Origin: a virus
Virus record (IMG/VR): IMGVR_UViG_3300027860_000002
Direction: 5' to 3' (one strand)
Length of the DNA: 35,184 nucleotides
Made by a program: the position numbers and the translations under genes. Shown piece by piece: positions 620 to 24,207 of this stretch. Below the pieces are notes generated by a model. It was not told where the DNA came from and ran no database searches. It was given only the letters and a program-made list of their open reading frames with translations. Numbering within the stretch: the stretch's first letter is position 1; each line of letters starts with the position of its first letter.

Positions 620-1696
620 TTATGAGAAATATTCTACAACAATAACGCATCCTGCCCCGCCATTACCACCGGCTCCCGATGTAGTTCCATTAAGAGAGCC
701 GCCGCCTCCGCCGCCTCCTCCTCCTGGAAATCCACCCGTGCCTCCAGTTCCAGCAGAACCGCCAGTATGTTGACCGCCGCCGCCACCACCACCAAGACCG
801 CCATAAATTCTGCCACCTGTTGTTAAATTTCCGTTAGCGCCGTTACCTCCTCCGATAGTACCGGATTCAATGCCTCCAGCGGCTCCCGCAACAAGGGTAG
901 TTGTTTGATAGTTATAGAGCACACCGCCACCATTACCCGCCTGTTGTGCAGTGGTACTATTAGCCCCAGAACCACCACCACCGCCGGTCGCATTAAATGC
1001 CTGCAAAGTGGCAGCTCCCGTAGAAGGTATACCAATGGATGTTGCGCTTGTACCAGCTCCTGTATTACCACCTCCACTGGTAACGGGGTCATTAGAAACG
1101 GAATCTTCAAATTGTGTCAAATAACTCTTGTATGAACTCGAGCCAATTGTATATGAACTATTAACTGTTTGACCAATAATAAAATTACCCAATCCAGAAT
1201 AACCACCAACGCCTCCAGGGTTGCCATTGGTGGTAGTTGTTGTTATTCCTGCGGCACCGGTTCCACCAGAGCCAACAGTTACCGTTTCGCCTGATGCATT
1301 AAAAAATCCTGTAGGCATGCCAAGCATTCCAAATTGACCTGCTGCACCGCCTCCACCACCATTTGCAGCAGTTGTTAAACCCTGTTTGCCCGAACTCCCA
1401 CCATTGCCACCCGACCATACATAGACCTCTACATAAACAGTATTCGTGTTTATGATCCATGTTCCATTACTATTAAATTGGGTTATTAAGGGCTTCGTCA
1501 CCGATCCTCCTCCTGCGGCTTGAAATGTGGGTGCCATAGCAGCACCATTTGAAGTAAGCACTTGGCCAGCAGTTCCAACGGTTGTTGTGTTTAATTTAGT
1601 GCCATCATAGTAAACAACCCCATCCGTATTAGTCATAGAAGAGGCATTAGTGCCTCCTTCAGCTATTGGAGAGGGCGTTATGCGTTTATAACTCAT
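620..1696 (-). CDS. Glycine-rich tail fibre-like protein (358 aa) with the shared N-terminal module
   Basis: ORF track. N-terminus MSYKRITPSPIAEGGT is shared with the next two genes. Long Gly runs, ending ...GGNGGAGCVIVVEYFS. Confidence 0.7.
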   Translation of the reverse strand: MSYKRITPSPIAEGGTNASSMTNTDGVVYYDGTKLNTTTVGTAGQVLTSNGAAMAPTFQAAGGGSVTKPLITQFNSNGTWIINTNTVYVEVYVWSGGNGGSSGKQGLTTAANGGGGGAAGQFGMLGMPTGFFNASGETVTVGSGGTGAAGITTTTTNGNPGGVGGYSGLGNFIIGQTVNSSYTIGSSSYKSYLTQFEDSVSNDPVTSGGGNTGAGTSATSIGIPSTGAATLQAFNATGGGGGSGANSTTAQQAGNGGGVLYNYQTTTLVAGAAGGIESGTIGGGNGANGNLTTGGRIYGGLGGGGGGGQHTGGSAGTGGTGGFPGGGGGGGGGSLNGTTSGAGGNGGAGCVIVVEYFS

Positions 1697-1704
1697 AGTT
1701 TTTC

Positions 1705-2241
1705 CTACCAGACTTCATATGATGTACCATTAAAAACAACTTCGCAGGACTGGTAGTTGGTATTCATAACAAACGTAGTCGCACCATCAATAGTGACTGA
1801 ACCACCAACCGTTGTTACGGTGATATTGTGAGTAGAAGCAGAACCTGCAGTGTCTTTAATCACATATACGCGACCGGTTGAGGGTGCATTAGGAAGTTCC
1901 ACAGTAATAGCGCCGCCCGAACTAGTAACTCCCAAATAATAATCAGTTGTTAATGCAACATACGGTGACGTACTTACTGCTGTATAGGTAATAGATGTGC
2001 CTGCAGCAGCTATAGTTATAGTTCCAGCGCCATTAGTAACTGTTATACCCGATCCTGCAGTAATCGTCGCCAATACCGGAGCAGCCGTTGAAGATCCAAT
2101 AGGAATTTGTCCATTGGTTGCGGCTCCCAGTGCCGATATGGCTGACGTTCCGTTGCCAAGCAGCAATGAATTAGCAAGAAGGGTCTGTGCACCCGTACCG
2201 CCTTCAATTATTGGCTGAGGACTAATTCTTTTATATGACAT
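1705..2241 (-). CDS. Tail fibre paralogue (178 aa): shared N-terminal module plus shared C-terminal domain
   Basis: N-terminus MSYKRISPQPIIEGGTGA. C-terminal SPYVALTTDYYLGV..GGAITVELPNAPSTGRVYVIKD..HNITVTTVGG is closely similar to the C-terminus of 2876-3358. Confidence 0.7.
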   Translation of the reverse strand: MSYKRISPQPIIEGGTGAQTLLANSLLLGNGTSAISALGAATNGQIPIGSSTAAPVLATITAGSGITVTNGAGTITIAAAGTSITYTAVSTSPYVALTTDYYLGVTSSGGAITVELPNAPSTGRVYVIKDTAGSASTHNITVTTVGGSVTIDGATTFVMNTNYQSCEVVFNGTSYEVW

Positions 2242-2248
2242 ATGTTTC

Positions 2249-2866
2249 CTATGCTATTTGATAGCCCATAAAATAAACTGCTATTAATCCAGCAATATTT
2301 CCCGATAGTTGTGTAGGCGAGCCAAGTGCATGATAGTATACTTTCATAGTATCTCCCGCAGTAAGGCTTATAATGATAGAAGTTGTTGTACATATCGAAA
2401 TAGTGCCACTTGTGGTTTGCTGATTTAGGGCGGCAGAATATGCTGTTGAGTTGTGTGTAAATCCTATATAATCACCAACAGTTCCAGATCCTCCAGCAGG
2501 TGCTACTTGCGTGGTAAATGTATAAAGTCCATTTGTTGGCGCAGTGAAGAGTTTATTGCCATCATATACAGAGCCGTTGTTAATAACGGTATTTGTAAAT
2601 GTACAATCAAAACTACCCGATCCCAAAGAAATCTGGCCTACTGACGAAGCAAAAAATGAACAAGTAGCCGCAAGAGGCGTCCCACCTCCCGGTTGAAATG
2701 TAGGAGCAACCCCAGTTCCATTTGAAGTAAGTACTTGACCCGAAGTTCCAACAGCAGTACTTGCCAGTATCGATCCATTGTAATAAATAACACCATCGAC
2801 GGTATAAGTCGTTGCGCCAGTACCACCTTCAATAATTGGTTGTGGACTGATTCTTTTATATGCCAT
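2249..2866 (-). CDS. Tail fibre paralogue (205 aa): shared N-terminal module with a different C-terminal domain
   Basis: N-terminus MAYKRISPQPIIEGGTGA, then VGTSGQVLTSNGTGVAPTFQPGGG, which parallels 620-1696. Confidence 0.7.
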   Translation of the reverse strand: MAYKRISPQPIIEGGTGATTYTVDGVIYYNGSILASTAVGTSGQVLTSNGTGVAPTFQPGGGTPLAATCSFFASSVGQISLGSGSFDCTFTNTVINNGSVYDGNKLFTAPTNGLYTFTTQVAPAGGSGTVGDYIGFTHNSTAYSAALNQQTTSGTISICTTTSIIISLTAGDTMKVYYHALGSPTQLSGNIAGLIAVYFMGYQIA

Positions 2867-2875
2867 ATTGTTTCC

Positions 2876-3358
2876 TTAAAACACTAAATAGGTAGTGCCA
2901 TTAAAAAGAACTTGAATACTTTCATAGGCAGTATTCATGGCAAAACTTGTTCCAGCATCTATATTCACCGCACCACCAACCGTCGTAACAGTAATATTAT
3001 GCGTAGCCGCCGTCCCACTAATATCTTTTATGATATAAAATCTCCCTGTTGCAGGAGCGTTTGGTAATTCTATTGTTATTGCACCACCACTACTATCTAC
3101 TCCCAGAAATACATCTGTCGTGAGCACTACATAGGGGCTCGTGTTAACGAGGGTATACGTAAAAGATGATGATCCACTAGATGATATAGTAAGGGTATGA
3201 GTGCCTGGATTACCTACAACTGAAACGCCGCCCGATCCCACTACATTAATATTATAGGAACCATCAGGCGATACTGCCCCGCCACTATTGCCCGTTAAGG
3301 TATTAACTGCTGTGCCCGGACCAGGATTTCCTCTCTGAATCTGCGATATATGACTCAT
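2876..3358 (-). CDS. Tail fibre paralogue (160 aa) sharing the C-terminal domain of 1705-2241
   Basis: Start moved to ATG 3358 (MSHISQIQ), which follows GGGAG. C-terminal SPYVVLTTDVFLGV..GGAITIELPNAPATGRFYIIKD..HNITVTTVGG. Confidence 0.65.
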   Translation of the reverse strand: MSHISQIQRGNPGPGTAVNTLTGNSGGAVSPDGSYNINVVGSGGVSVVGNPGTHTLTISSSGSSSFTYTLVNTSPYVVLTTDVFLGVDSSGGAITIELPNAPATGRFYIIKDISGTAATHNITVTTVGGAVNIDAGTSFAMNTAYESIQVLFNGTTYLVF

Positions 3359-3369
3359 ATATGCTCCCG

Positions 3370-3723
3370 TTAGTTTGTAGGCGCTCCGCACCAATAGGTT
3401 ACGTACACAGCTCCAGTCGTTGGAGGTGTGCCACTATATTTGCCGTACACAACCGTACCAAGCTGCATAAAGAGACCATCAGCACTTACCGTTCTATTGG
3501 TAGTAAAGTCCATAACCTGTATCGCATTGGAGGGAAGTACCCATTTATTATTGATACCGTCATCAGAAAAATATATAAGAGCATCAGTGCCGTTATATAC
3601 CTGTAGCAATCGAACGGGTGATGTAGAAGGAATGCCAATTGCGAGATATGAAGTTGTTATATCGGCCGCCACAAGTGTGTTAAGAACAAGAGGAATTACG
3701 CGTAAGGTATCATTGGCCGCCAT
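3370..3723 (-). CDS. Hypothetical virion or fibre-associated protein (117 aa)
   Basis: ATG 3723 (MAANDTLRV) follows GGAGGT. Tightly packed inside the fibre cassette. Confidence 0.5.
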   Translation of the reverse strand: MAANDTLRVIPLVLNTLVAADITTSYLAIGIPSTSPVRLLQVYNGTDALIYFSDDGINNKWVLPSNAIQVMDFTTNRTVSADGLFMQLGTVVYGKYSGTPPTTGAVYVTYWCGAPTN

Positions 3724-3924: not shown

Positions 3925-4866
3925 TTATTGAGATACGACCATAAAAGTAATAACAACATTAGTATTAAGAGCAGTTGCGGCGGCATTATTATACAGGGTT
4001 ACGGTGAGGGTATTGGCAGCTACCTGTGTTCTAATTACTGATATTTCCGCAGCAGCGCCACCGGAATTTGTTGCAGTAACCAGTACCCCTGAGTTTGCGG
4101 TTACCTTATTACAGGTAATAACTATATTTTGGGTAGCGTTACCAAGAATTGCCACGCCAGTTTGAGTCGCCACACCAATAAATGCACCATTAAAGTTAGC
4201 GGCTGCACCCGCGGTAGTTACTTCAAGTGCTTCAAGAAAGATGTCGCCATTTCCAGCGGTATTAAGCGTAATGCTACCACCCGATGTTTCGATAAGAATA
4301 TTACCAGCATTACCAGGGTCATTGGCATTGATAATTATGGCATTACCGCCAGTATCATCACTATTAATATTAATAACGCCCGTACTTGTAATGGTAGTGC
4401 CACCTGTATTTGATTCAATGTCTATAGCAGCACCAGCACCAGCCGCATCTATGGTAATAGTATTCCCTGCACCATTTGCCTCAAGTGTTAGGTTGCCCGT
4501 TACGGTTTCAACGGTAAGATTTGCTCCTGTAACCGTAAGATGAGAATTGGTAGTAGAGTCCATTAAAATAGCACCCGTAGTATTTACGGTAAATGCACCG
4601 GTCCCAGTAAAGGTAAATGGACCTGGGTTAACGGTAATAGATGTAAAAACACCCGCCCCACCAGCAGTATTTACCCAAGTAGCAATATTATTACGCACTG
4701 ATGCCAAAATAAACACTTGATTAGTAAGGGCATCAACCCAGACCGTACCCACTTGCGCTTTATCATTAACACCCGGTATTCGCTTTGCAACAATAGGATA
4801 AGGCGGTTCGATAATAAGGCCTTGATTTTGGCCATAAGCAACGTATTTGAACGTAGAAACAGACAT
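3925..4866 (-). CDS. Tail fibre/spike-like protein (313 aa)
   Basis: N-terminal PYPIVAKRIPGVNDKAQVGTVWVD resembles PYLVVEQRIPTQNDLVGFQIGAIW of the junction-spanning fibre. The body is T/G/N/A-rich and repetitive. Confidence 0.6.
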   Translation of the reverse strand: MSVSTFKYVAYGQNQGLIIEPPYPIVAKRIPGVNDKAQVGTVWVDALTNQVFILASVRNNIATWVNTAGGAGVFTSITVNPGPFTFTGTGAFTVNTTGAILMDSTTNSHLTVTGANLTVETVTGNLTLEANGAGNTITIDAAGAGAAIDIESNTGGTTITSTGVININSDDTGGNAIIINANDPGNAGNILIETSGGSITLNTAGNGDIFLEALEVTTAGAAANFNGAFIGVATQTGVAILGNATQNIVITCNKVTANSGVLVTATNSGGAAAEISVIRTQVAANTLTVTLYNNAAATALNTNVVITFMVVSQ

Positions 4867-4908
4867 GTTATTCCTTTACAAACATTACCAAACAGTGTAG
4901 CGTTGTTG

Positions 4909-4937
4909 GTATATGTGTTAGTATATGTGTTAGTATA
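4909..4937. repeat. Tandem 12-mer GTATATGTGTTA, about 2.4 copies, upstream of the 3925-4866 gene
   Basis: Read directly. On the minus strand it gives two TATACT -10-like hexamers 45-70 nt before the ATG at 4866. Confidence 0.7.
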
Positions 4938-5038
4938 AAATAGCCTTCCAGTTTCATCGTACTACTGCATATTCTTCGCGCGAAGAAGTGAAATGAAATA
5001 AAAAATGATGATTACCTGCTGTTTTAAGAAGGGAGAGT

Positions 5039-5275
5039 GTGGTGAAGAAAATAAATATAGCTCGTGGTAACATGGCACATGAAAAAAAGAAGCCGCATAA
5101 GATCACATTTAATACGCCTGAGGATATGTATGATGCGTTACATCATGCATCTGCTGCAGGAAATATATCGATGACTAAGTACATAATACGGTTGCTGTAT
5201 GTAGCGTTGATGAGAGATGGGTTCTTGCAGGATAAGTTAGTGGAGCATAGAGTTGATATATTTATGAAAAGTTAA
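5039..5275 (+). CDS. Ribbon-helix-helix (CopG/Arc-like) DNA-binding protein on the strand opposite the structural genes
   Basis: HKITFNTPEDMYDALHHASAAGNISMTKYIIRLLYVAL fits a strand-helix-helix pattern. GGGAGAG lies before the GTG GTG start. Confidence 0.5.
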   Translation: MVKKINIARGNMAHEKKKPHKITFNTPEDMYDALHHASAAGNISMTKYIIRLLYVALMRDGFLQDKLVEHRVDIFMKS

Positions 5276-12430: not shown

Positions 12431-13504
12431 TCAATAAAACGTGAAGGTATTACCAGCCATCCAGAACATAGAGTCACCAATACCAGTGTTAGTATTGAAG
12501 CCTCCAGCAGGACCTGCGTTTTGAGCGCCGGCTCCACGCAGACCACCACCAAGCTGCATACCTATAAAAGCAGTATTTAACGTTGCATCACTGAGGATGT
12601 TAACGTTATTAAGTAATGCTATAGAGGTATATTCACCCATCGGTGTGGTTTGAGCAGGAGAGAACGGAACTAAAGCAGCAGGTGGATAGTACGTAGGACC
12701 AGCAAATGCCCAAGGGCCATATGCTGATGTATCTATATTTACTGTAATGGTAAAGAGTGTTGTAGGTTCATTACCGGTTACAATAACAGGAGCGTTACCC
12801 ACAGCAACAATAGTTGTTTGCATACCATCAAGAAGCGCATAATTACCCCATACTTGAGTGCCACCAGGGAAGTTAAGACGTATTTCTTGGCCAACTTGGT
12901 ATCCACTATTAACAGAAGTATAGATAACAGGTGTCACTTCAGCTGACATATAGGTAATAGCTCGATGGTTTGGATACCATTGAGCTACAGGAATAACTCT
13001 ATAACTACCCGCGTTAGAAGCTACAGTACCTACGGCGTTAACGCCACCAAGTGTAAAGCTTACTCCAGGGTTAACCGCAGTAACTTGGAAATCGATACCT
13101 GCAAATTGCGGCTGGTTATTGAGGTTTGCCAATCGCACAAACTGTCCTACGAGAGGAGTAGTCGCTGTCAGAACAACTGGAGGATTAGCAGCGCTAAACC
13201 CAGTAATAGCATATGACACACCAGGAGTAGCAACAGATGTATTAATAACAGTAAACCCGTTGCCAGCAGCAAGTTCACCAACAGTAACCGAGTTATTAGC
13301 TAAACCACCATTCTTAGTCCAGACAACACCCTGGGAAATAGGCATGCCTACTTGCCAGAAGAAATCATAACCCAAAACGGCAGCGGCTTGCGTAAGCGCT
13401 GTTTGATTAAGCACTCTCATCCAACTTACACCCGATGGTATAGGTATGATGATATTAGCACCTGTTGAAGTAAATTGACCTTGTAGAGTAATAGTATTAT
13501 TCAT
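12431..13504 (-). CDS. Abundant virion structural protein (357 aa), possible decoration or second capsid-associated protein
   Basis: Starts 10 nt after the capsid stop codon and is followed by a hairpin. Confidence 0.5.
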   Translation of the reverse strand: MNNTITLQGQFTSTGANIIIPIPSGVSWMRVLNQTALTQAAAVLGYDFFWQVGMPISQGVVWTKNGGLANNSVTVGELAAGNGFTVINTSVATPGVSYAITGFSAANPPVVLTATTPLVGQFVRLANLNNQPQFAGIDFQVTAVNPGVSFTLGGVNAVGTVASNAGSYRVIPVAQWYPNHRAITYMSAEVTPVIYTSVNSGYQVGQEIRLNFPGGTQVWGNYALLDGMQTTIVAVGNAPVIVTGNEPTTLFTITVNIDTSAYGPWAFAGPTYYPPAALVPFSPAQTTPMGEYTSIALLNNVNILSDATLNTAFIGMQLGGGLRGAGAQNAGPAGGFNTNTGIGDSMFWMAGNTFTFY

Positions 13505-13513
13505 AGTTACTCC

Positions 13514-13791
13514 TTAGGCTTGTGTAGCACGTAAATTGATTACCCAGGCATCATTTAAGATACGTGGGACCTCAGCAAACTTGTACCCAACAGACGCATT
13601 GAGAGCTAAAGGACCATCATATATCGGTGGTCGGTATATAAAGGCCGCACTGTATCCATCTTGTTCTACGCAGGCATATGCTTCCATACCAACACAGAAT
13701 ATGTTGTATACGGTATTACCATTTGCAGATGCAAAAGGAATTGCAGAACCAATACTAGAAATCAAAAAGCGTAGGTTGCCAATTGAGCCCC
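13514..13791 (-). CDS. Major capsid protein, exon 3
   Basis: Encodes (W)GSIGNLRFLISSIGSAIPFASANGNTVYNIFCVGMEAYACVEQDGY...RATQA. It has no start codon or RBS of its own. The 5' end at 13791 follows the intron-terminal G at 13792 (uncertain by about 3 nt). Confidence 0.75.
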
Positions 13792-14226
13792 CAATCTGTT
13801 ACTTTCCTATGACTGCCCATTACAAATCGGGTCAGCGGGTTACCCTCTTCCTAGGAGCCGATCACCACGGCTCGGAGTAACCTCTCTATGTTTCCATAGA
13901 GTTCAGACTATCGCATCCTCTTTCGAGGTTTTCGGGTTTAGTCGTTCAGGCTGAATGAAACGTTCTCTCCAGTATTTCAAAAGATCATCGCGATTTAATT
14001 TATTATTAAAATACAAATCAGTATCAACAAATCTATAAATTCTGTCATGACATTCACCACAGAAAATATATTCATCAAAATTACTAACGCGTAAAATAAT
14101 AAAATAATCACAATCTAATGCCATACATTTGATACGTTTCTTCATTCTTGCCCCTTATTGCCGGTTAGCGTATAGCCACTACGGTTTCCAAGTCAATTAC
14201 CGAAAATTTATAGTGAGCTAAGGTTA
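13792..14226 (-). mobile_element. Group I intron 2 in the capsid gene (about 435 nt)
   Basis: P1: exon AGUGAGU pairs with intron GCUCACU, with U.G at the splice site. Shared core GACUAAAC..CCUCGAAAGAGG..GAUAGUC..CUCUAUGGAAACAUAGAG (P7/P8/P9-like, GNRA loops). Terminal G at 13792. Confidence 0.75.
13903..14145 (-). CDS. Intron 2 ORF: 80-aa four-Cys protein of unknown function
   Basis: AAGGGG lies 5 nt before the ATG. Contains CMALDC...CGEC. The last ~14 codons overlap the conserved ribozyme core. Confidence 0.5.
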   Translation of the reverse strand: MKKRIKCMALDCDYFIILRVSNFDEYIFCGECHDRIYRFVDTDLYFNNKLNRDDLLKYWRERFIQPERLNPKTSKEDAIV

Positions 14227-14464
14227 ACTCACTTCGTAAAGCATTCATAGGTGATGGATAGTTATTCTTATGAATAAATCCAGCAACTGCATCTAAGTTA
14301 CCAGTAAGTTGAGTACTGCAAAGAGCAAAGTACGCATCACGTACAGGAGCTGTACCGAAACGGTCTTCGCCCTGAATGTTATCTAATACAGTATACGCAT
14401 TGTTATCAAGCAATGTTCGCACTACAGTATCAACATCAGGTCGTGTTATTTCAGTAGGATTGTC
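14227..14464 (-). CDS. Major capsid protein, exon 2
   Basis: Encodes DNPTEITRPDVDTVVRTLLDNNAYTV...PSPMNALRSE plus one base. It is bounded by the intron 1 terminal G (14465) and the intron 2 5' splice site. Confidence 0.8.
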
Positions 14465-14486
14465 CATTTTCTATTACTTTATTGAC

Positions 14487-15404
14487 TTATATCGAATAAT
14501 ATGCCATTATTTTATCATGATTAAAAAAATTAAAAAATTTAACTATGCATACATAGCTGGATATATCGACGGAGACGGATGTTTTGACATTGGAAAACAG
14601 TATGTTAAAAATCGTCTTAGTCCACGATATCCTGCTGGTATAATAGTATCTTCTACTAATGATAAAATAATAAATTGGTTTAATAATACATTTGGAGGAT
14701 CGGTTCGCTCTTATAAAAAGAGAACTTCTAATCAAAAGCCTATGTATTACTTTATTTTGAGAAAAAATAAAAGTATGTATTTGATTCCAAAAATTCTTCC
14801 TTTTTTGGTTGAAAAACGAGAAGAAGCATGTTTGTTTTTGGAATTTTGTAAACAAACAAACCCTATGAATAAAGAACATCTTATTAATAAGCTTAAAATA
14901 ACCAAAAGTGTGGGCAATCTTGTTACAAAGTATCATAAAGAAGAGTTTGAGCGACTTAAAAGTACAATCAATCCTACGATATATGATTTTGCATATTTGG
15001 CTGGATTTATAGATGCAGAATGTTCGTTGAATATTCAAAAATATAAGCCAAAAAACAAACCAAATTATGTTTATAAGATTCTGTTGCAATGCAACAATAC
15101 TAAAGCACCCGCCTTTAAATGGCTTATTGAAAGATTTGGAGGACAAATACATTTTATTGATCGCAGAAACCATGGAAAAGCAAGAAAGAATCAATTGACC
15201 TGGCGTTTGTCGGGAAAAGCTCTTTCTCATATTCTGCCAAATATTTATCAATTTCTCAGATATAAAAAACCAGTTTGTAAGCAATTGATTAAATTTTATG
15301 AAACAACTCTTAAGAATGGTGGTGCGCGACATACGGATCAATTTAGATCTGAATATGACCGCACTATAAAAATCAGAGAAGAGATTGTAACTAAAGTTCA
15401 TCAA
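14487..15404 (-). CDS. 305-codon intron-sense ORF, codon-aligned antisense to the LAGLIDADG gene. Coding status unknown
   Basis: ORF track. It uses the same triplet phase as the plus-strand gene and is open only because that gene has no TTA, CTA or TCA codons. The F/I/S/K-rich product has no motif I recognise. Confidence 0.2.
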   Translation of the reverse strand: MMNFSYNLFSDFYSAVIFRSKLIRMSRTTILKSCFIKFNQLLTNWFFISEKLINIWQNMRKSFSRQTPGQLILSCFSMVSAINKMYLSSKSFNKPFKGGCFSIVALQQNLINIIWFVFWLIFLNIQRTFCIYKSSQICKIIYRRIDCTFKSLKLFFMILCNKIAHTFGYFKLINKMFFIHRVCLFTKFQKQTCFFSFFNQKRKNFWNQIHTFIFSQNKVIHRLLIRSSLFIRANRSSKCIIKPIYYFIISRRYYYTSRISWTKTIFNILFSNVKTSVSVDISSYVCIVKFFNFFNHDKIMAYYSI

Positions 15405-15434
15405 TTAAACTCCAAGGGCATAAAATCAATATAA
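14517..15434 (+). CDS. Double-motif LAGLIDADG homing endonuclease (305 aa), antisense to intron 1 and the capsid gene
   Basis: Two motifs: YIAGYIDGDGCF and YLAGFIDAECSL. The first ATG is at 14517 (MIKKIKKF). A possible TTGACT-17-CATTAT promoter lies at 14482-14510. Confidence 0.85.
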   Translation: MIKKIKKFNYAYIAGYIDGDGCFDIGKQYVKNRLSPRYPAGIIVSSTNDKIINWFNNTFGGSVRSYKKRTSNQKPMYYFILRKNKSMYLIPKILPFLVEKREEACLFLEFCKQTNPMNKEHLINKLKITKSVGNLVTKYHKEEFERLKSTINPTIYDFAYLAGFIDAECSLNIQKYKPKNKPNYVYKILLQCNNTKAPAFKWLIERFGGQIHFIDRRNHGKARKNQLTWRLSGKALSHILPNIYQFLRYKKPVCKQLIKFYETTLKNGGARHTDQFRSEYDRTIKIREEIVTKVHQLNSKGIKSI

Positions 15435-15621
15435 GCGGGTGATCATTTCTGTCACCTCTTTATGTTTCCATAAAGATTCGACTATCACATCCTCTTTCGA
15501 GGTCTTTCTGTTTAGTCTGTCACGCTGCACAGCAAATACTTGCTTGCGCCTTGTTGTCTCCAGCATTACCTGGTAAGAGTTCCAAGTCCATTAAGAAAGA
15601 TTTTACAACGGCAACAATTCT

Positions 15622-16053
15622 ACCGTTGACACCAGCGGTGCAATTAATAAATGCGGCAGTTGCAGCGAGCATGTCTCTTGTGAGAGTATCCTCTGTCTGT
15701 CTCAAACTTACACCCAAACGTTCCGCTGCCTGATTAAGCACTGGATCTTGGTTTTGGAGCGTAACTTGCTCATTTAATATTATATATTGACCATAAAACG
15801 AAACGGTTGCATCGATATCGATAGCAGTTAGGTTCACTGAAGGAGGCGTCACGCCAGTATTTCCCAAAGGAACTAGTGCTGTTGGTAGGGGATTATATCT
15901 ACGCATTCTCAGCGTAACACCACCATTCCTAGGCATGACCTTAAGTTCAGCTGGTATCTTATGGATCATGTTTGGAACAGGAACCGATAAGAGTTTGTAG
16001 CTAAAACTTTGTTGGACAGGCGCCGGAAGAGTGGTTGTAGTTGTAATAGGCAT
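15622..16053 (-). CDS. Major capsid protein, exon 1 (144 codons)
   Basis: MPITTTTTLPAPVQQSFSYKLL...PRNGGVTLRMRRYNPLP...FINCTAGVNG looks like an HK97-fold podovirus capsid N-terminus. Past the splice site the frame reads on into intron sequence until the stop at 15520. Confidence 0.8.
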
Positions 16054-16213
16054 GTAATAGAACCTTACATTATGCTATTTCACATAAACACACGTAAGTT
16101 GGCGAGACTTGTATCAGCCGTTTTGTGCATACTGCACGATTTGAGTGGACGATGCTCAAGTTCAGTCCTAGGGTTTTGTTGAAGCGAGCGTCACTTCGAT
16201 ACTGCTCAGAGAG

Positions 16214-16243
16214 AATATACCACTAAGAATAATGGTGTGTGAA
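16214..16243 (-). promoter_or_regulatory. Possible sigma70-type promoter for the capsid operon (TTCACA-18 nt-TATATT)
   Basis: Read on the minus strand, about 155 nt upstream of the capsid ATG. Confidence 0.3.
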
Positions 16244-16274
16244 GAGGTGATATAAAATTCCCACGGTTGCGGGA

Positions 16275-16397
16275 TTATTTCTTTCTGCGTGACCAGTATT
16301 CTTTTTCTTCTGGTAGCTCTAGATACTCTTTTAAAAACATCCAGTAGAGTATATTAAAAATGCAAGTCCCAAGCATTATATGATCATAATTGGTCAT
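16275..16397 (-). CDS. Possible small membrane protein (40 aa)
   Basis: GGAG precedes the ATG. Product MTNYDHIMLGTCIFNILYWMFLKEYLELPEEKEYWSRRKK. Below the ORF-track size cutoff. Confidence 0.3.
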   Translation of the reverse strand: MTNYDHIMLGTCIFNILYWMFLKEYLELPEEKEYWSRRKK

Positions 16398-23940: not shown

Positions 23941-24014
23941 TGGTAACCTGTAAAGGAATCGAACCTTTTCCTCTGGGCTGAAAACCCAGGGTTCTACCAA
24001 TAAACTAACAGGTC
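23941..24014 (-). tRNA. tRNA with anticodon UUC (Glu), CCA encoded
   Basis: Hand-folded cloverleaf: acceptor GACCTGT/ACAGGTT, D arm GTTT-ATTGGTA-GAAC, anticodon stem CTGGG/CCCAG with loop TTTTCAG, T arm AAAGG-TTCGATT-CCTTT. Confidence 0.75.
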
Positions 24015-24109: not shown

Positions 24110-24207
24110 AAACCCGAGTTGGATTCGAACCAACGTCCCGATCGCCCGAAATTACAACTAATAATCTCGTATACCTGGCAACCACTCTACCGCTGAGCTA
24201 TCGGGTA
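24110..24207 (-). tRNA. Atypical 98-nt tRNA-like gene with an extended anticodon arm
   Basis: Canonical TA-GCTC-AGCGGTA-GAGT D arm, GTTGG-TTCGAAT-CCAAC T arm and 6/7-bp acceptor stem. Between them lies GTTGCC-AGGTATA-[CGAGATTA-TTAGTTG-TAATTTCG]-GGCGAT instead of a 17-nt anticodon arm. No CCA is encoded. Confidence 0.55.

Follow-up and report, generated by a model that had tools for sequence, protein, structure and literature searches.

The question raised by this locus is why a long reading frame remains open on the strand opposite a homing endonuclease gene. The window, by which we mean the whole 35,184-nucleotide stretch of viral DNA that was analyzed, contains a major capsid gene interrupted by a group I intron, and the endonuclease gene within that intron runs against the direction of the capsid message (Table 1). 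A second ORF, here called the mirror ORF, occupies the intron strand over nearly the same DNA, and is aligned codon for codon with the endonuclease gene exactly as the initial annotation of this sequence had claimed. That annotation attributed the open frame to selection against stop codons in the intron sense, and offered three possible reasons: a genuine antiparallel gene, a translatable spacer, or a constraint on ribozyme folding.

Table 1. Coordinates of the features discussed in the text.
Feature	Position	Strand	Details
Capsid exon 2	14227..14464	-	opens GAC AAT CCT (DNP...)
Group I intron 1	14465..15621	-	1157 nt; predicted from P1 and P10, conserved terminal G and covarying core
Ribozyme 3' tail	14465..14486	-	GUCAAUAAAGUAAUAG AAAAUG; conserved; G 14465 is the 3'-terminal G
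Sigma-70-like promoter (predicted)	14482..14510	+	TTGACT-17-CATTAT; ends 6 nt ahead of endonuclease ATG
P9.2 3' arm	14486..14492	-	AUAUAAG; holds mirror ORF stop TAA 14489-14487
Mirror ORF	14487..15404	-	305 codons; TTG 15404-15402, ATG 15401-15399, stop 14489-14487
LAGLIDADG homing endonuclease gene	14517..15434	+	305 codons plus stop; antisense to intron, in P9.2 loop
Candidate mirror initiation region	15399..15413	-	GGAG 15413-15410, in-phase stop TAA 15407-15405, TTG, ATG
P9.2 5' arm	15429..15435	-	CUUAUAU; covers endonuclease last sense codon ATA, stop TAA and one more base
Ribozyme core P1-P9.1	15436..15621	-	includes P7 ACUA (within 15519-15512) with UAGU (within 15486-15480)
P9.1 hairpin	15437..15457	.	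ribozyme helix 12; plus-strand terminator-like site
P1/P10 guide region	15606..15628	-	exon-intron pairing
Major capsid gene exon 1	15622..16053	-	aa 1-144; 3' end ...GTC AAC GGT; PHROG 1357 match

The intron and its antisense cargo

The product of exon 1 matched PHROG 1357 (major head protein) with E = 1.2e-15, and its match to Pfam Phage_capsid_4 was sub-threshold. Intron limits of 14465-15621 had been proposed previously, and these proved exact when compared with homologues, with intron-less alleles and with the P1 and P10 pairings. In insert-free alleles (e.g., L123, L120 and L127), which are loci that have their endonuclease gene at another capsid site, capsid aa 144 is joined straight to aa 2 of the next ORF or exon. 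In P1, exon CAACGGU (15628-15622) is bound by intron GCCGUUG (15612-15606). The U.G pair that marks the 5' splice site was invariant in 24/24 aligned sequences, and compensatory changes were found in three of the seven P1 pairs. P10 can form in the window between intron AUUGUU (15618-15613) and GACAAU of exon 2. The 3'-terminal G was conserved ahead of GAC or GAT in the compared loci, and the two bases preceding it varied. The exon-1 frame continues 33 codons into the intron.

Because Rfam found no group I intron, the intron had to be established from the P1/P10 logic, the intron-less alleles and covariation. Neither the window nor 20 related loci had a match to RF00028 at the gathering score, and a search of region 13300-16300 relaxed to E values up to 10 again had none. 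In the alignment of 24 sequences, however, the core helices P3-P8 were present, including the P3/P7 pseudoknot. Over the whole core, 51 pairs in 12 helices were paired in 98.3% of cells and 35 of them had compensatory changes, values that none of 500 shuffles reached; slid controls were only 35-47% paired. P7, for instance, alternates between ACUA/UAGU and AGCA/UGCU across the aligned loci. With covariation evidence of this strength, we treated the Rfam miss as a sensitivity gap. On this evidence the insert is a group I intron of the major capsid gene, although its self-splicing activity is inferred.

The predicted catalytic core is complete within the first ~186 nt of the intron, wholly 5' of the insert and outside the endonuclease gene, and the 3' splice site is transcribed ~1 kb behind it. 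The endonuclease gene is housed in the 936-nt terminal loop of P9.2, which is closed by a long-range helix whose arms covary between loci (e.g., CTTAAACA/TGTTTAAG, CTTACGG/CCGTAAG and CTTAGATG/TATCTAAG). The RNA of the insert is AU-rich (70% A+U, with 16% C and 14% G). Beyond the loop, the 3' tail of the ribozyme is kept both in introns with an endonuclease and in endonuclease-free introns of the same family.

Several other readings of the insert were considered and rejected. Doubt that it is an intron, raised by the apparently small amount of sequence (85 + 49 nt) not taken up by the endonuclease gene, is removed by homologues in which exon 1 ends at aa 144, leaving a core of 186 nt. An intein is incompatible with an endonuclease gene on the opposite strand to the capsid gene. 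A split capsid gene, or an exon 2 with its own ATG coupled to the mirror stop, was discounted because the required start, the ATG at 14467-14465, varies among loci and is replaced elsewhere by TCG, CCG, TTG or TAG ahead of GAC. Finally, pairing of the 3' tail AAGUCAA with a 5' UUGACUU has no support, as its mismatches are uncompensated, and P9.2 is the real closing helix.

The plus-strand gene at 14517-15434 had been identified as a LAGLIDADG homing endonuclease gene, which is borne out by a match of its product to Pfam PF00961 in two stretches (E = 1.8e-11; 45.3 bits against a cut-off of 23.1) and, in the PDB, by a match to I-MsoI (E = 2.8e-6). Both LAGLIDADG motifs, YIAGYIDGDG and YLAGFIDAEC, are in one chain, and residues G15, D18, G19, D20, G163, D166 and E168 are invariant. 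Mobility of the endonuclease is suggested only indirectly, by the occurrence of the same family at at least three capsid sites, and site-specific cleavage is likewise inferred. A megablast search of the region against 50,697 phage records returned no match, and the only hits of a protein search of phages were distant LAGLIDADG genes from Streptomyces and Caulobacter phages of high GC content, of no use as codon controls. In a scan of a genome collection only six loci were observed, mostly on phage contigs binned into MAGs.

The initial annotation also proposed that the endonuclease gene has its own promoter and a leaderless mRNA, based on a TTGACT-17-CATTAT candidate. That element is present, and in 37/56 loci at this site hexamers resembling TTGACT and TATAAT were found 16-18 nt apart, the second of them ending exactly 6 nt ahead of the ATG in 27 of those 37. 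There is no Shine-Dalgarno sequence before the endonuclease ATG, whereas the phage's other genes carry strong ones. The conserved promoter layout and the missing Shine-Dalgarno sequence support the proposal, and suggest that the endonuclease mRNA is leaderless. On the plus strand, the P9.1 hairpin is followed by CTTTATGTTT, an intrinsic-terminator-like arrangement 3 nt past the endonuclease stop codon. The cassette is predicted to be transcribed from a promoter of its own and seems to have a terminator as well. The -35 hexamer of the promoter is borrowed from the ribozyme tail. Conservation of the 3' motif solely as an endonuclease promoter was ruled out, as endonuclease-free introns keep the motif.

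Codon choice in the endonuclease gene

TTA, CTA and TCA are the sole sense codons that give codon-aligned antisense stops. Since each can be replaced by a synonym, their absence costs the endonuclease protein nothing. In the endonuclease gene of this phage, Leu is encoded by TTG (11), CTT (9), CTG (2), CTC (1) and TTA (1), and never by CTA. The lone TTA is codon 297 and the lone TCA is codon 304 of 305. Our recount agreed with the earlier reading that 23 Leu and 14 Ser codons precede the first TTA and TCA, which fall in the last 10 codons: codons 1-296 include 23 Leu and 13 Ser codons, and the 14th Ser is codon 299, before the TCA. The gene is AT-biased as reported (30% GC), with A-ending codons favored elsewhere (AAA 31/41, CAA 10/11). 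Other genes in the window do use TTA and CTA freely (30% of Leu), and TCA as well (24% of Ser). The limit of about 136 codons given for other antisense shadow ORFs also stood, the longest plus-strand ORF opposite a minus-strand gene elsewhere in the window being 136 aa.

Permutation of synonymous codons, which the annotation had put forward as a check, indicated that such an open frame is rare (analytic P = 7e-6). Resampling from the codon table of the window gave ~10 expected in-phase stops and a median longest open run of 68 codons, and an open run of at least 296 codons arose in 1 of 200,000 trials. When the codon usage of two free-standing relatives was used instead, P was 5e-8 and no such run was obtained in 200,000 trials.

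Conservation of the property, a second check put forward at that time, was assessed in 118 homologues with 33-79% identity and a GC content of 27-41%. In-phase TTA, CTA and TCA were absent from codons 12-296 in 110/118 of them, down to 33% identity. Over those codons the family had 13 TTA, 1 CTA and 4 TCA, or 18 in 4,609 codons (2,632 Leu + 1,977 Ser); the purging is >100-fold and is not chance. Across the family the mirror frame had 0.05 stops per 100 codons, compared with 5.8 and 11.0 in the other two antisense frames. A-ending codons are otherwise favored in these genes (AAA 81%, CAA 86%), and NTA and NCA codons apart from the purged ones are also common (ATA 24%, GCA 28%, CCA 38%). TTA, CTA and TCA are used freely from codon 297 onward; at codon 297 itself TTA or CTA accounted for 35 of 105 Leu codons, a share equal to background, and at codon 10 one of the three was present in 9/118 genes. 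Their free use at codons 297 and 10 indicates that the constraint sets in immediately past the mirror start codon and lapses close to the N-terminus of the endonuclease.

Natural controls were available within the same family tree and the same introns. Two free-standing relatives that are nested in the tree, L161 (by a resolvase and HicAB) and L022 (by a tRNA), had 21 and 14 in-phase stops, respectively, and four sense-oriented LAGLIDADG genes in the same capsid introns had 22, 14, 9 and 10 in-phase TTA, CTA or TCA codons. Six of seven other antisense LAGLIDADG genes, distantly related and at other capsid sites, were stop-free; the exception, L101, is an antisense endonuclease gene at capsid site 89 with nine in-phase stops and no mirror ORF. 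P6-type loop inserts (90-285 nt) in the same intron family were also spanned by an intron-sense ORF in 28/28 distinct cases, one of which was counted only by using a GTG start seen in the sequence, and each of these ORFs begins 0-3 nt past AAGGGGCAAG. Overall, the permutations, the conservation in the family and the controls support the earlier inference of selection for a stop-free intron-sense frame.

The sequence of the mirror protein, by comparison, appeared to be unconstrained. In pairs with 20-60% identity, the fraction of identical endonuclease residues with the same codon was 0.51-0.54, compared with 0.505-0.511 for independent draws, and the invariant Gly, Asp and Tyr columns draw on all their synonyms. 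Mirror-protein identity was 20-35% where endonuclease identity was 20-60%. Because synonymous sites are otherwise free, we consider that only openness is selected.

Proposed ribosome passage and the competing explanations

The position of the mirror start was highly consistent. In this phage the mirror TTG is the complement of Gln296 (CAA) and the mirror ATG that of His295 (CAT), with a gap of 8 nt between GGAG and the ATG, and an ATG, GTG or TTG mirrors codon 295 or 296 in 113/116 genes. A strict Shine-Dalgarno core was present upstream of the mirror start in 20 genes against 2.7 expected, although just ~18% of family members have a clear one. His295 is also conserved in free-standing copies, so the mirror start could be a by-product of the endonuclease sequence. 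Fusion of the mirror ORF to exon 1 was rejected, as the frames differ and an in-phase stop is always present at most 45 codons upstream, except in L065 and the truncated L118.

The end of the mirror ORF was far less regular. In nearly all genes no stop interrupts the frame up to and including the complement of codon 12. Its end then varies, from one codon past the Tyr12 complement at one extreme to read-through into exon 2 at the other. About one third of mirror ORFs end at the TAAG motif, about one third continue in-frame into exon 2 past the 3' splice site, and the rest end elsewhere; those that end early leave a structured tail of at most ~80 nt ahead of the 3' splice site. The idea that the mirror stop is tied to the conserved TAAG in the P9.2 arm was rejected, since the phase of the ORF relative to that motif is random.

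Of the reasons originally offered, the data favor the translatable spacer. We think it somewhat probable, without regarding it as settled, that the mirror ORF is a translated spacer in which the passage of ribosomes has been selected rather than the protein made; translation itself is inferred. Ribosomes on the capsid pre-mRNA would start just past the core, at the ATG or TTG that mirrors His295 or Gln296, and in this phage the GGAG 8 nt upstream of the ATG would serve that start. They would then traverse the whole antisense endonuclease sequence and terminate in or near the P9.2 3' arm, the endonuclease genes here remaining translatable on their other strand by shunning TTA, CTA and TCA. The most likely purpose would be to cover a long, AU-rich and unstructured insert. 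Such coverage would keep exon 1 and the ribozyme connected to the 3' splice site and the downstream late genes, from which Rho-dependent termination or endonucleolytic cleavage could otherwise part them.

A number of points weigh against the translated spacer. The signs of translation are only indirect, namely the start codon, the enrichment of Shine-Dalgarno sequences and the abruptness with which the constraint begins and ends. The insert RNA is not notably C-rich, so there is no evident strong site for Rho loading. The antisense gene of L101 lacks a mirror ORF. In addition, translation within bacterial and phage group I introns is held to be kept low to protect folding (PMC3073962), and by that established view the read-through into exon 2 in about one third of loci should disturb splicing.

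A different use of the same ribosomes, as helpers of folding, seems to us unlikely but is the strongest of the alternatives. Moving ribosomes would strip mispairings of the AU-rich loop with the P9.2 arms or the core, so that the arms meet and present the 3' splice site, and protection from Rho or RNase would be secondary. The arms are short and AU-rich (CUUAUAU/AUAUAAG) and 936 nt apart, the mirror ORF of the window terminates inside the 3' arm, and ribosomes are established chaperones of phage group I introns (PMC3073962). Selection for openness only is expected here just as it is for a spacer. However, the end of the mirror ORF varies, so release at the P9.2 arm is not conserved, and ribosomes bound at the arm would block P9.2 too. 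The purpose of translation, whether protection from Rho or RNase or help in folding, is inferred, and sequence alone cannot tell these apart. The folding constraint on the ribozyme that had been suggested originally is a separate matter; alone it cannot explain a depletion that is specific to one frame and to certain codons, and the core is outside the endonuclease gene.

Considerably less credible is a genuine antiparallel protein gene, which would have to encode a protein whose function rests on composition or hydropathy and not on exact sequence. The long ORF with a conserved start position in >100 homologues and the possible Shine-Dalgarno sequence are consistent with a gene, and the second codon positions of the antisense frame, and hence its hydropathy pattern, are conserved automatically. 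The mirror protein of the window (305 aa, basic and hydrophobic, pI 10.3) had no Pfam or PHROG match, and the low identity among mirror proteins noted above also argues against a gene. The synonymous sites of the endonuclease are the first codon positions of the mirror ORF and show no excess conservation, being as free as by chance, which leaves the originally proposed antiparallel gene with a conserved product unsupported. Moreover, the boundaries of the ORF follow the insert and not a domain, and unrelated single-motif LAGLIDADG genes share the property while their mirror proteins are unrelated.

We give still less weight to control of sense-antisense interference. Here ribosomes would block a ~0.9 kb duplex with the endonuclease mRNA, and thereby RNase III cleavage of the capsid pre-mRNA, or a coupled ribosome would help RNA polymerase past the head-on endonuclease unit. 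Complementary transcripts and head-on transcription are indeed to be expected, given that the endonuclease gene is read from the opposite strand with a conserved promoter and a hairpin resembling a terminator, and the property is specific to antisense inserts. However, sense inserts have an intron-sense ORF anyway, so plain shielding explains the orientation specificity equally well, and an ORF also spans every one of the small sense P6-type loop inserts, none of which has an antisense gene.

The absence of any selection on the mirror frame (chance, donor codon bias, or avoidance of TTA, CTA and TCA for endonuclease translation, e.g., because tRNAs with UAA, UAG and UGA anticodons are scarce) is hardly tenable: a single AT-rich gene could be a fluke and codon-aligned antisense frames are the easiest kind to keep open, but this explanation is already refuted by the P values for this gene alone, the recurrence in the family, the free use of the three codons at codons 297-305 and codon 10 of the same genes and at normal rates in free-standing and sense-oriented genes, and the commonness of other NTA and NCA codons.

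A broader rule is evenly poised on present evidence: every insert of appreciable size in this widespread intron family would have to be translatable on the intron strand, and when an endonuclease gene inserts backward, selection would create a full-length mirror ORF whose only role is to carry ribosomes across. Such a frame would be strongly selected to stay open but not for what it encodes, a clear case from nature of translation favored for itself. This could be a general design rule for antisense cargo in the self-splicing introns of bacteria and phages. The usual view of minimized intron translation would be challenged, as ribosome transit may be needed where the 3' splice site is ~1 kb behind the core. 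The idea is testable, since synonymous changes in the endonuclease gene can add mirror-frame stops without altering the endonuclease protein. On a practical level, gene callers may choose the wrong strand in such introns, and Rfam misses the whole of the present intron family.

Comparison with known introns and overlapping genes

In a full-text search of the literature we found no earlier account of a mirror ORF lying antisense to a homing endonuclease gene. An endonuclease ORF in a peripheral loop is known from several phage group I introns, including those of T4 td (I-TevI) and nrdB (I-TevII), Twort orf142 and the capsid introns of cluster J mycobacteriophages. The intron described here resembles them in being a self-splicing-type intron in an essential phage gene with a mobile endonuclease cassette in a peripheral loop, in the overlap between the ends of the endonuclease ORF and ribozyme helices, and in the interaction of translation and splicing (PMC3073962). 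Unlike those introns, the present one has its endonuclease gene on the opposite strand, with a sigma-70-like promoter and a seemingly leaderless mRNA, and its intron strand bears a second, mirror ORF held open by codon choice. In addition, the exon-1 frame runs well into the intron rather than stopping at once.

To our knowledge, a mirror open frame has not been described in nuclear rDNA introns with an antisense endonuclease, nor would one be expected there. Those introns (I-DirII of Didymium; L2066 introns, PMC9548176) likewise have an antisense endonuclease gene with its own promoter. They differ from the present case in that they lie in untranslated nuclear Pol I transcripts, where no ribosome meets the intron RNA. 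IStrons, which combine a group I intron with an IS element, have transposase or TnpB genes on the intron strand, and we know of no purged mirror frame in them. Their similarity to the capsid intron is in layout, with a 5' ribozyme core and then a long gene-bearing insert before the 3' splice site (PMC13521648). In the ShiLan-type insertion, with its hidden out-of-frame HNH endonuclease, the host-sense frame is likewise stop-free and the endonuclease is in another frame. That endonuclease, however, shares the strand of its host gene, the stop-free frame runs on unbroken from the host protein, and the insertion was found to lack a splicing element (PMC11855218). The endonuclease gene analyzed here is instead carried antisense within a bona fide intron, and its mirror ORF is a separate cistron not fused to exon 1.

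Claimed antisense overlapping genes of bacteria and viruses usually rest on expression data and have weak evolutionary support. They are similar to the mirror ORF in that a long codon-aligned antisense ORF covers a known gene. Separating selection for translation from selection for its product has been a long-standing difficulty in the debate on such genes. The natural controls without purging and the >100 genes with purging provide that separation, as a long antisense frame is kept open without constraint on the protein sequence. Compared with the claimed antisense genes, the evolutionary signal in the present family is very strong, but it is a signal of openness only, with no amino-acid constraint.

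The capsid gene, its first intron and the antisense endonuclease gene

Nearly all genes of the window are on the minus strand. The major capsid gene, which starts at 16053 and matches PHROG 1357 (major head protein, E = 1.2e-15), is interrupted and lies in three pieces. The antisense gene in its first intron matches the Pfam LAGLIDADG_1 model above cut-off and also matches I-MsoI, an endonuclease of solved structure. We refer to the codon-aligned frame opposite this gene, which is read in the sense of the intron, as the mirror frame; in-phase TTA, CTA and TCA codons of the endonuclease gene create its stops.

Rfam 15 (RF00028 and all other families) gave no match in window positions 13300-16300 (E up to 10) or in 20 related loci, and for this reason the intron was tested directly. 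The limits proposed in the initial annotation were borne out by intron-less alleles, P1/P10 and covariation. In relatives with the endonuclease gene at another capsid site, residue 144 is joined directly to residue 2 of the next ORF, which fixes the junction at GGT/...G/GAC. Exon CAACGGU and intron GCCGUUG form P1, in which a U.G pair marks the splice site, intron AUUGUU is able to pair with exon 2 GACAAU as P10, and the final intron base is G. An alignment of 24 diverse 5' parts of introns contained 51 base pairs in 12 helices, including the P3/P7 pseudoknot, with 98.3% of cells paired and compensatory changes in 35 of the pairs. These values were not attained in any of 500 shuffles; pairing in slid controls was 35-47%. 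This is a real group I intron, of a family that seems to be outside the reach of the current Rfam model despite strong covariation support. The alternative of a simply split capsid gene, with exon 2 using its own ATG, was rejected because that ATG is not conserved (TCG, CCG, TTG or TAG in other loci).

The catalytic core, P1 to P9.1, is complete within the first ~186 nt of the intron. Endonuclease-free introns of the same ribozyme family, found at many other capsid positions, are ~200 nt long, with a small P9.2 hairpin and then GGUCAYAAAAGUAACAG-N-G at their 3' end. In endonuclease-containing introns the cassette occupies the P9.2 loop (936 nt, 70% A+U), so the 3' splice site is ~1 kb behind a complete core. 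The P9.2 arms covary across loci (e.g., CTTAAACA/TGTTTAAG, CTTACGG/CCGTAAG and CTTAGATG/TATCTAAG). The exon-1 frame stays open over 33 intron codons, and over 17-33 in relatives; an in-frame stop directly after the 5' splice site is said to be typical of bacterial and phage group I introns (PMC3073962).

Coordinates of features in the window
Feature	Position	Strand	Remarks
LAGLIDADG gene	14517-15434	+	305 codons, between capsid pieces 1 and 2
Mirror ORF	14487-15404	-	exact codon alignment with endonuclease gene
Catalytic core	15621-15436	-	
P9.2 arms	15435-15429; 14492-14486	-	CUUAUAU; AUAUAAG
Exon-1 frame extension	15520-15621	-	TGA 15522-15520, in junction before P7
Promoter-like site	14482-14510	+	TTGACT-17-CATTAT, sequence reading
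-35 hexamer	14482-14487	+	TTGACT
P9.1 hairpin	15437-15457		terminator-like on plus strand
Second capsid intron	13792-14226	-	435 nt, same ribozyme family; limits by eye from P1 and conserved tail
Second-intron sense ORF	13903-14145	-	80 aa, CxxC pairs
tRNA-like sequence	24110-24207	-	Rfam tRNA, 38.7 bits
tRNA-Glu(UUC)	23941-24014		normal

Elsewhere in the window, a tRNA-like sequence carries an extra 31 nt in its anticodon arm and was missed by ARAGORN; it adjoins a normal tRNA-Glu, and could be an interrupted or degenerate tRNA.

Mirror stops in the endonuclease family and its relatives

The codon counts of the initial annotation were correct: codons 1-296 of the endonuclease gene include 23 Leu and 13 Ser codons and no TTA, CTA or TCA, the sole TTA being codon 297 and the sole TCA codon 304. 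From these it had inferred selection for a stop-free intron-sense frame, and resampling, family conservation and natural controls all support that inference. When Leu and Ser codons were drawn from the window codon table (TTA and CTA 30% of Leu, TCA 24% of Ser), ~10 in-phase stops were expected, with a median longest open run of 68 codons. An open run of at least 296 codons was obtained in one of 200,000 trials (analytic P = 7e-6), and P fell to 5e-8 when two unconstrained relatives supplied the codon usage. The open mirror frame is not due to chance.

A protein search returned 377 relatives, 166 loci were fetched, and 118 near-full-length genes (33-79% identity to that of the window, GC 27-41%) were scored over codons 12-296. 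In 110 of these genes none of the three codons occurs. Among 2,632 Leu and 1,977 Ser codons in all there are 13 TTA (most of them in L022, a free-standing relative), one CTA and four TCA. The codon-aligned antisense frame has 0.05 stops per 100 codons and the other two antisense frames 5.8 and 11.0; elsewhere these genes prefer A-ending codons (AAA 81%, CAA 86%, GAA 82%). The constraint is sharply edged, with TTA or CTA in 35 of 105 Leu codons at codon 297, which is the background rate, and a codon of the TTA/CTA/TCA type at codon 10 in 9 of the 118 genes. By the rules of the genetic code, codon-aligned antisense stops arise from only three sense codons, each with synonyms, and this frame is therefore the cheapest to keep open.

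Natural controls came from genes in other settings. Two free-standing relatives, both nested inside the family in a neighbour-joining tree, have 21 (L161; 49% identity, GC 29%, resolvase and HicAB beside it on the same strand) and 14 (L022; 46% identity, tRNA gene beside it) in-phase antisense stops. Sense-oriented LAGLIDADG genes in the same capsid introns have 22, 14, 9 and 10 (L041, L135, L044 and L156, respectively). Distantly related LAGLIDADG genes placed antisense at other capsid sites have none (L110, L076, L163) or have them confined to the last few codons (L152, L131, L166), with one exception, L101 at site 89, which has nine. The main family itself is antisense at no fewer than three capsid sites (residues 144/145, 117/118 and one in the third exon). 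This pattern indicates that purging depends on antisense placement inside an intron; it is independent of protein family, base composition and tRNA supply. These data show that mirror stops are strongly selected against across essentially the entire insert, in a manner that is specific to the frame and dependent on context.

Some further details of these loci were noted. In L161 (region 1278-3680) the endonuclease gene shares its strand with its neighbours, a serine recombinase gene directly before it and a HicA/HicB pair after it, and in L022 (region 1-1122) it directly follows a tRNA 3' end. Both genes have gone from the intron and use TTA, CTA and TCA normally. In L101 (region 4253-5180) the product is a single-motif protein of 184 aa that is Cys-rich near its N-terminus; its gene lies in a capsid intron at residue ~89, and the longest intron-sense ORF there is only 57 aa.

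That a mirror protein is the object of selection was not supported. At shared endonuclease residues, the same codon is used in a fraction of 0.51-0.54 (pairs of 20-60% identity), and 0.505-0.511 is expected from independent draws of family codon usage. Invariant Gly, Asp and Tyr columns use all synonyms, and mirror-protein identity is only 20-35% for endonuclease pairs of 20-60% identity. With a pI of 10.3 the mirror protein is basic; it is rich in both Phe and Ile and matches nothing in Pfam or PHROG. Selection acts on openness, with no amino-acid constraint on the mirror frame.

Expression signals and other introns

In 113 of 116 genes a start codon (ATG, GTG or TTG) mirrors codon 295 or 296. 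Because 35 genes have an in-phase stop two codons before it (TAA-NNN-ATG), initiation must take place within the intron. The mirror ORF as a continuation of exon 1 was rejected, since an in-phase stop lies no more than 45 codons upstream in all but two outliers (L065 and the truncated L118). In the window, GGAG is 8 nt upstream of the mirror ATG. A strict Shine-Dalgarno core at proper spacing is present in 20 genes, versus 2.7 expected from synonymous resampling, an enrichment that is real but concerns a minority of genes. In nearly all genes no stop interrupts the frame up to and including the codon-12 mirror, and the 3' end of the frame varies, from one codon past the mirror of Tyr12 up to the P9.2 arm. 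Where it ends soon after the codon-12 mirror, at most ~80 nt of structured tail precede the 3' splice site; in about a third of loci it continues into exon 2.

Judged from its sequence, the endonuclease cassette forms an antisense transcription unit of its own. A comparable -35/-10 pair is present in 37 of 56 loci at this intron site; of these 37, 27 have exactly 6 nt between the end of the -10 hexamer and the ATG. No Shine-Dalgarno sequence is upstream of the endonuclease ATG, whereas strong ones precede the other genes of the phage, which supports a putative leaderless mRNA. The conserved ribozyme tail supplies the -35 hexamer, which is complementary to the site (AAGUCAA) where the 3' arm of P9.2 meets this tail. 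The P9.1 hairpin, followed on the plus strand by a T-rich run, is 3 nt past the endonuclease stop codon. Both elements appear to have a dual use, in the ribozyme and in endonuclease expression.

The capsid gene family is a hotspot for this ribozyme family, with a dozen or more intron positions, often two to four per gene (around residues 24, 31, 52, 65, 79, 86-99, 104, 117 and 144, two sites in exon 2, the exon 2/3 region and residue ~48 of exon 3). Some introns have P6-type loop inserts of 90-285 nt, and an intron-sense ORF spans all 28 distinct inserts, the second intron of the window included (ATG starts were scored; one of the 28 was included only via a GTG start read by eye). These ORFs start 0-3 nt after a conserved AAGGGGCAAG and run in frame into the ribozyme 3' half (...QPER..., as QPERS or QPERL). 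In the second intron, flanked by the exon 2 end ...GAGT at 14227 and the exon 3 start GGGGCTC at 13791, the ORF starts 1 nt after this motif and passes through P6', P7, P3' and P8 to a TGA just past P7'. The inserts provide a parallel in favour of a general rule; whether they encode real small proteins or are further translated spacers is unresolved. Their peptides are very diverse, some with zinc-ribbon-like CxxC pairs, and the loci concerned (e.g., L016, L028, L050, L059, L105, L108, L119 and L130) carry them on the minus strand. Contigs L162-L165, which belong to this phage family and share its capsid gene and intron, are assigned to MAGs labelled Parachlamydiaceae, Pseudomonadota, Patescibacteria and Methanobacterium, a probable binning error that offers no dependable guide to the host.

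Inferred ribosome transit and known systems

We infer that ribosomes may load directly past the ribozyme core and cross the insert, and that their passage would be what counts. The most likely benefit would be that the long, unstructured, AU-rich nascent capsid pre-mRNA is shielded from Rho-dependent termination or RNase attack, either of which would leave the 3' splice site and the late genes beyond it cut off from exon 1 and the ribozyme. We lean slightly towards such a translated, RNA-shielding spacer; the mechanism is plausible but unproven. Against it, there are no expression data, the Shine-Dalgarno sequence is weak in most family members, L101 is an exception, and the insert RNA is not C-rich. 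Read-through into exon 2 also counts against it, because on the established view translation across the 3' splice site should disturb splicing (PMC3073962). A variant in which ribosomes instead remove mispairings, so that the P9.2 arms are able to meet, is possible but we consider it unlikely.

Phage introns with sense endonuclease genes are classic, and intron translation there is thought to be kept low. Full-text searches of the literature turned up no account of a mirror frame purged in this way opposite a homing endonuclease gene. Nuclear rDNA group I introns are known to carry endonuclease genes in antisense orientation (I-DirII; PMC9548176); those introns are never met by ribosomes. In the ShiLan insertion an open host-sense frame crosses a hidden HNH gene (PMC11855218), but that gene is on the same strand and continuous with the host protein, and an intron was not found there. 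Group I introns that carry LAGLIDADG endonuclease genes are a known kind of element, and the purged mirror frame is a new, well-supported feature.
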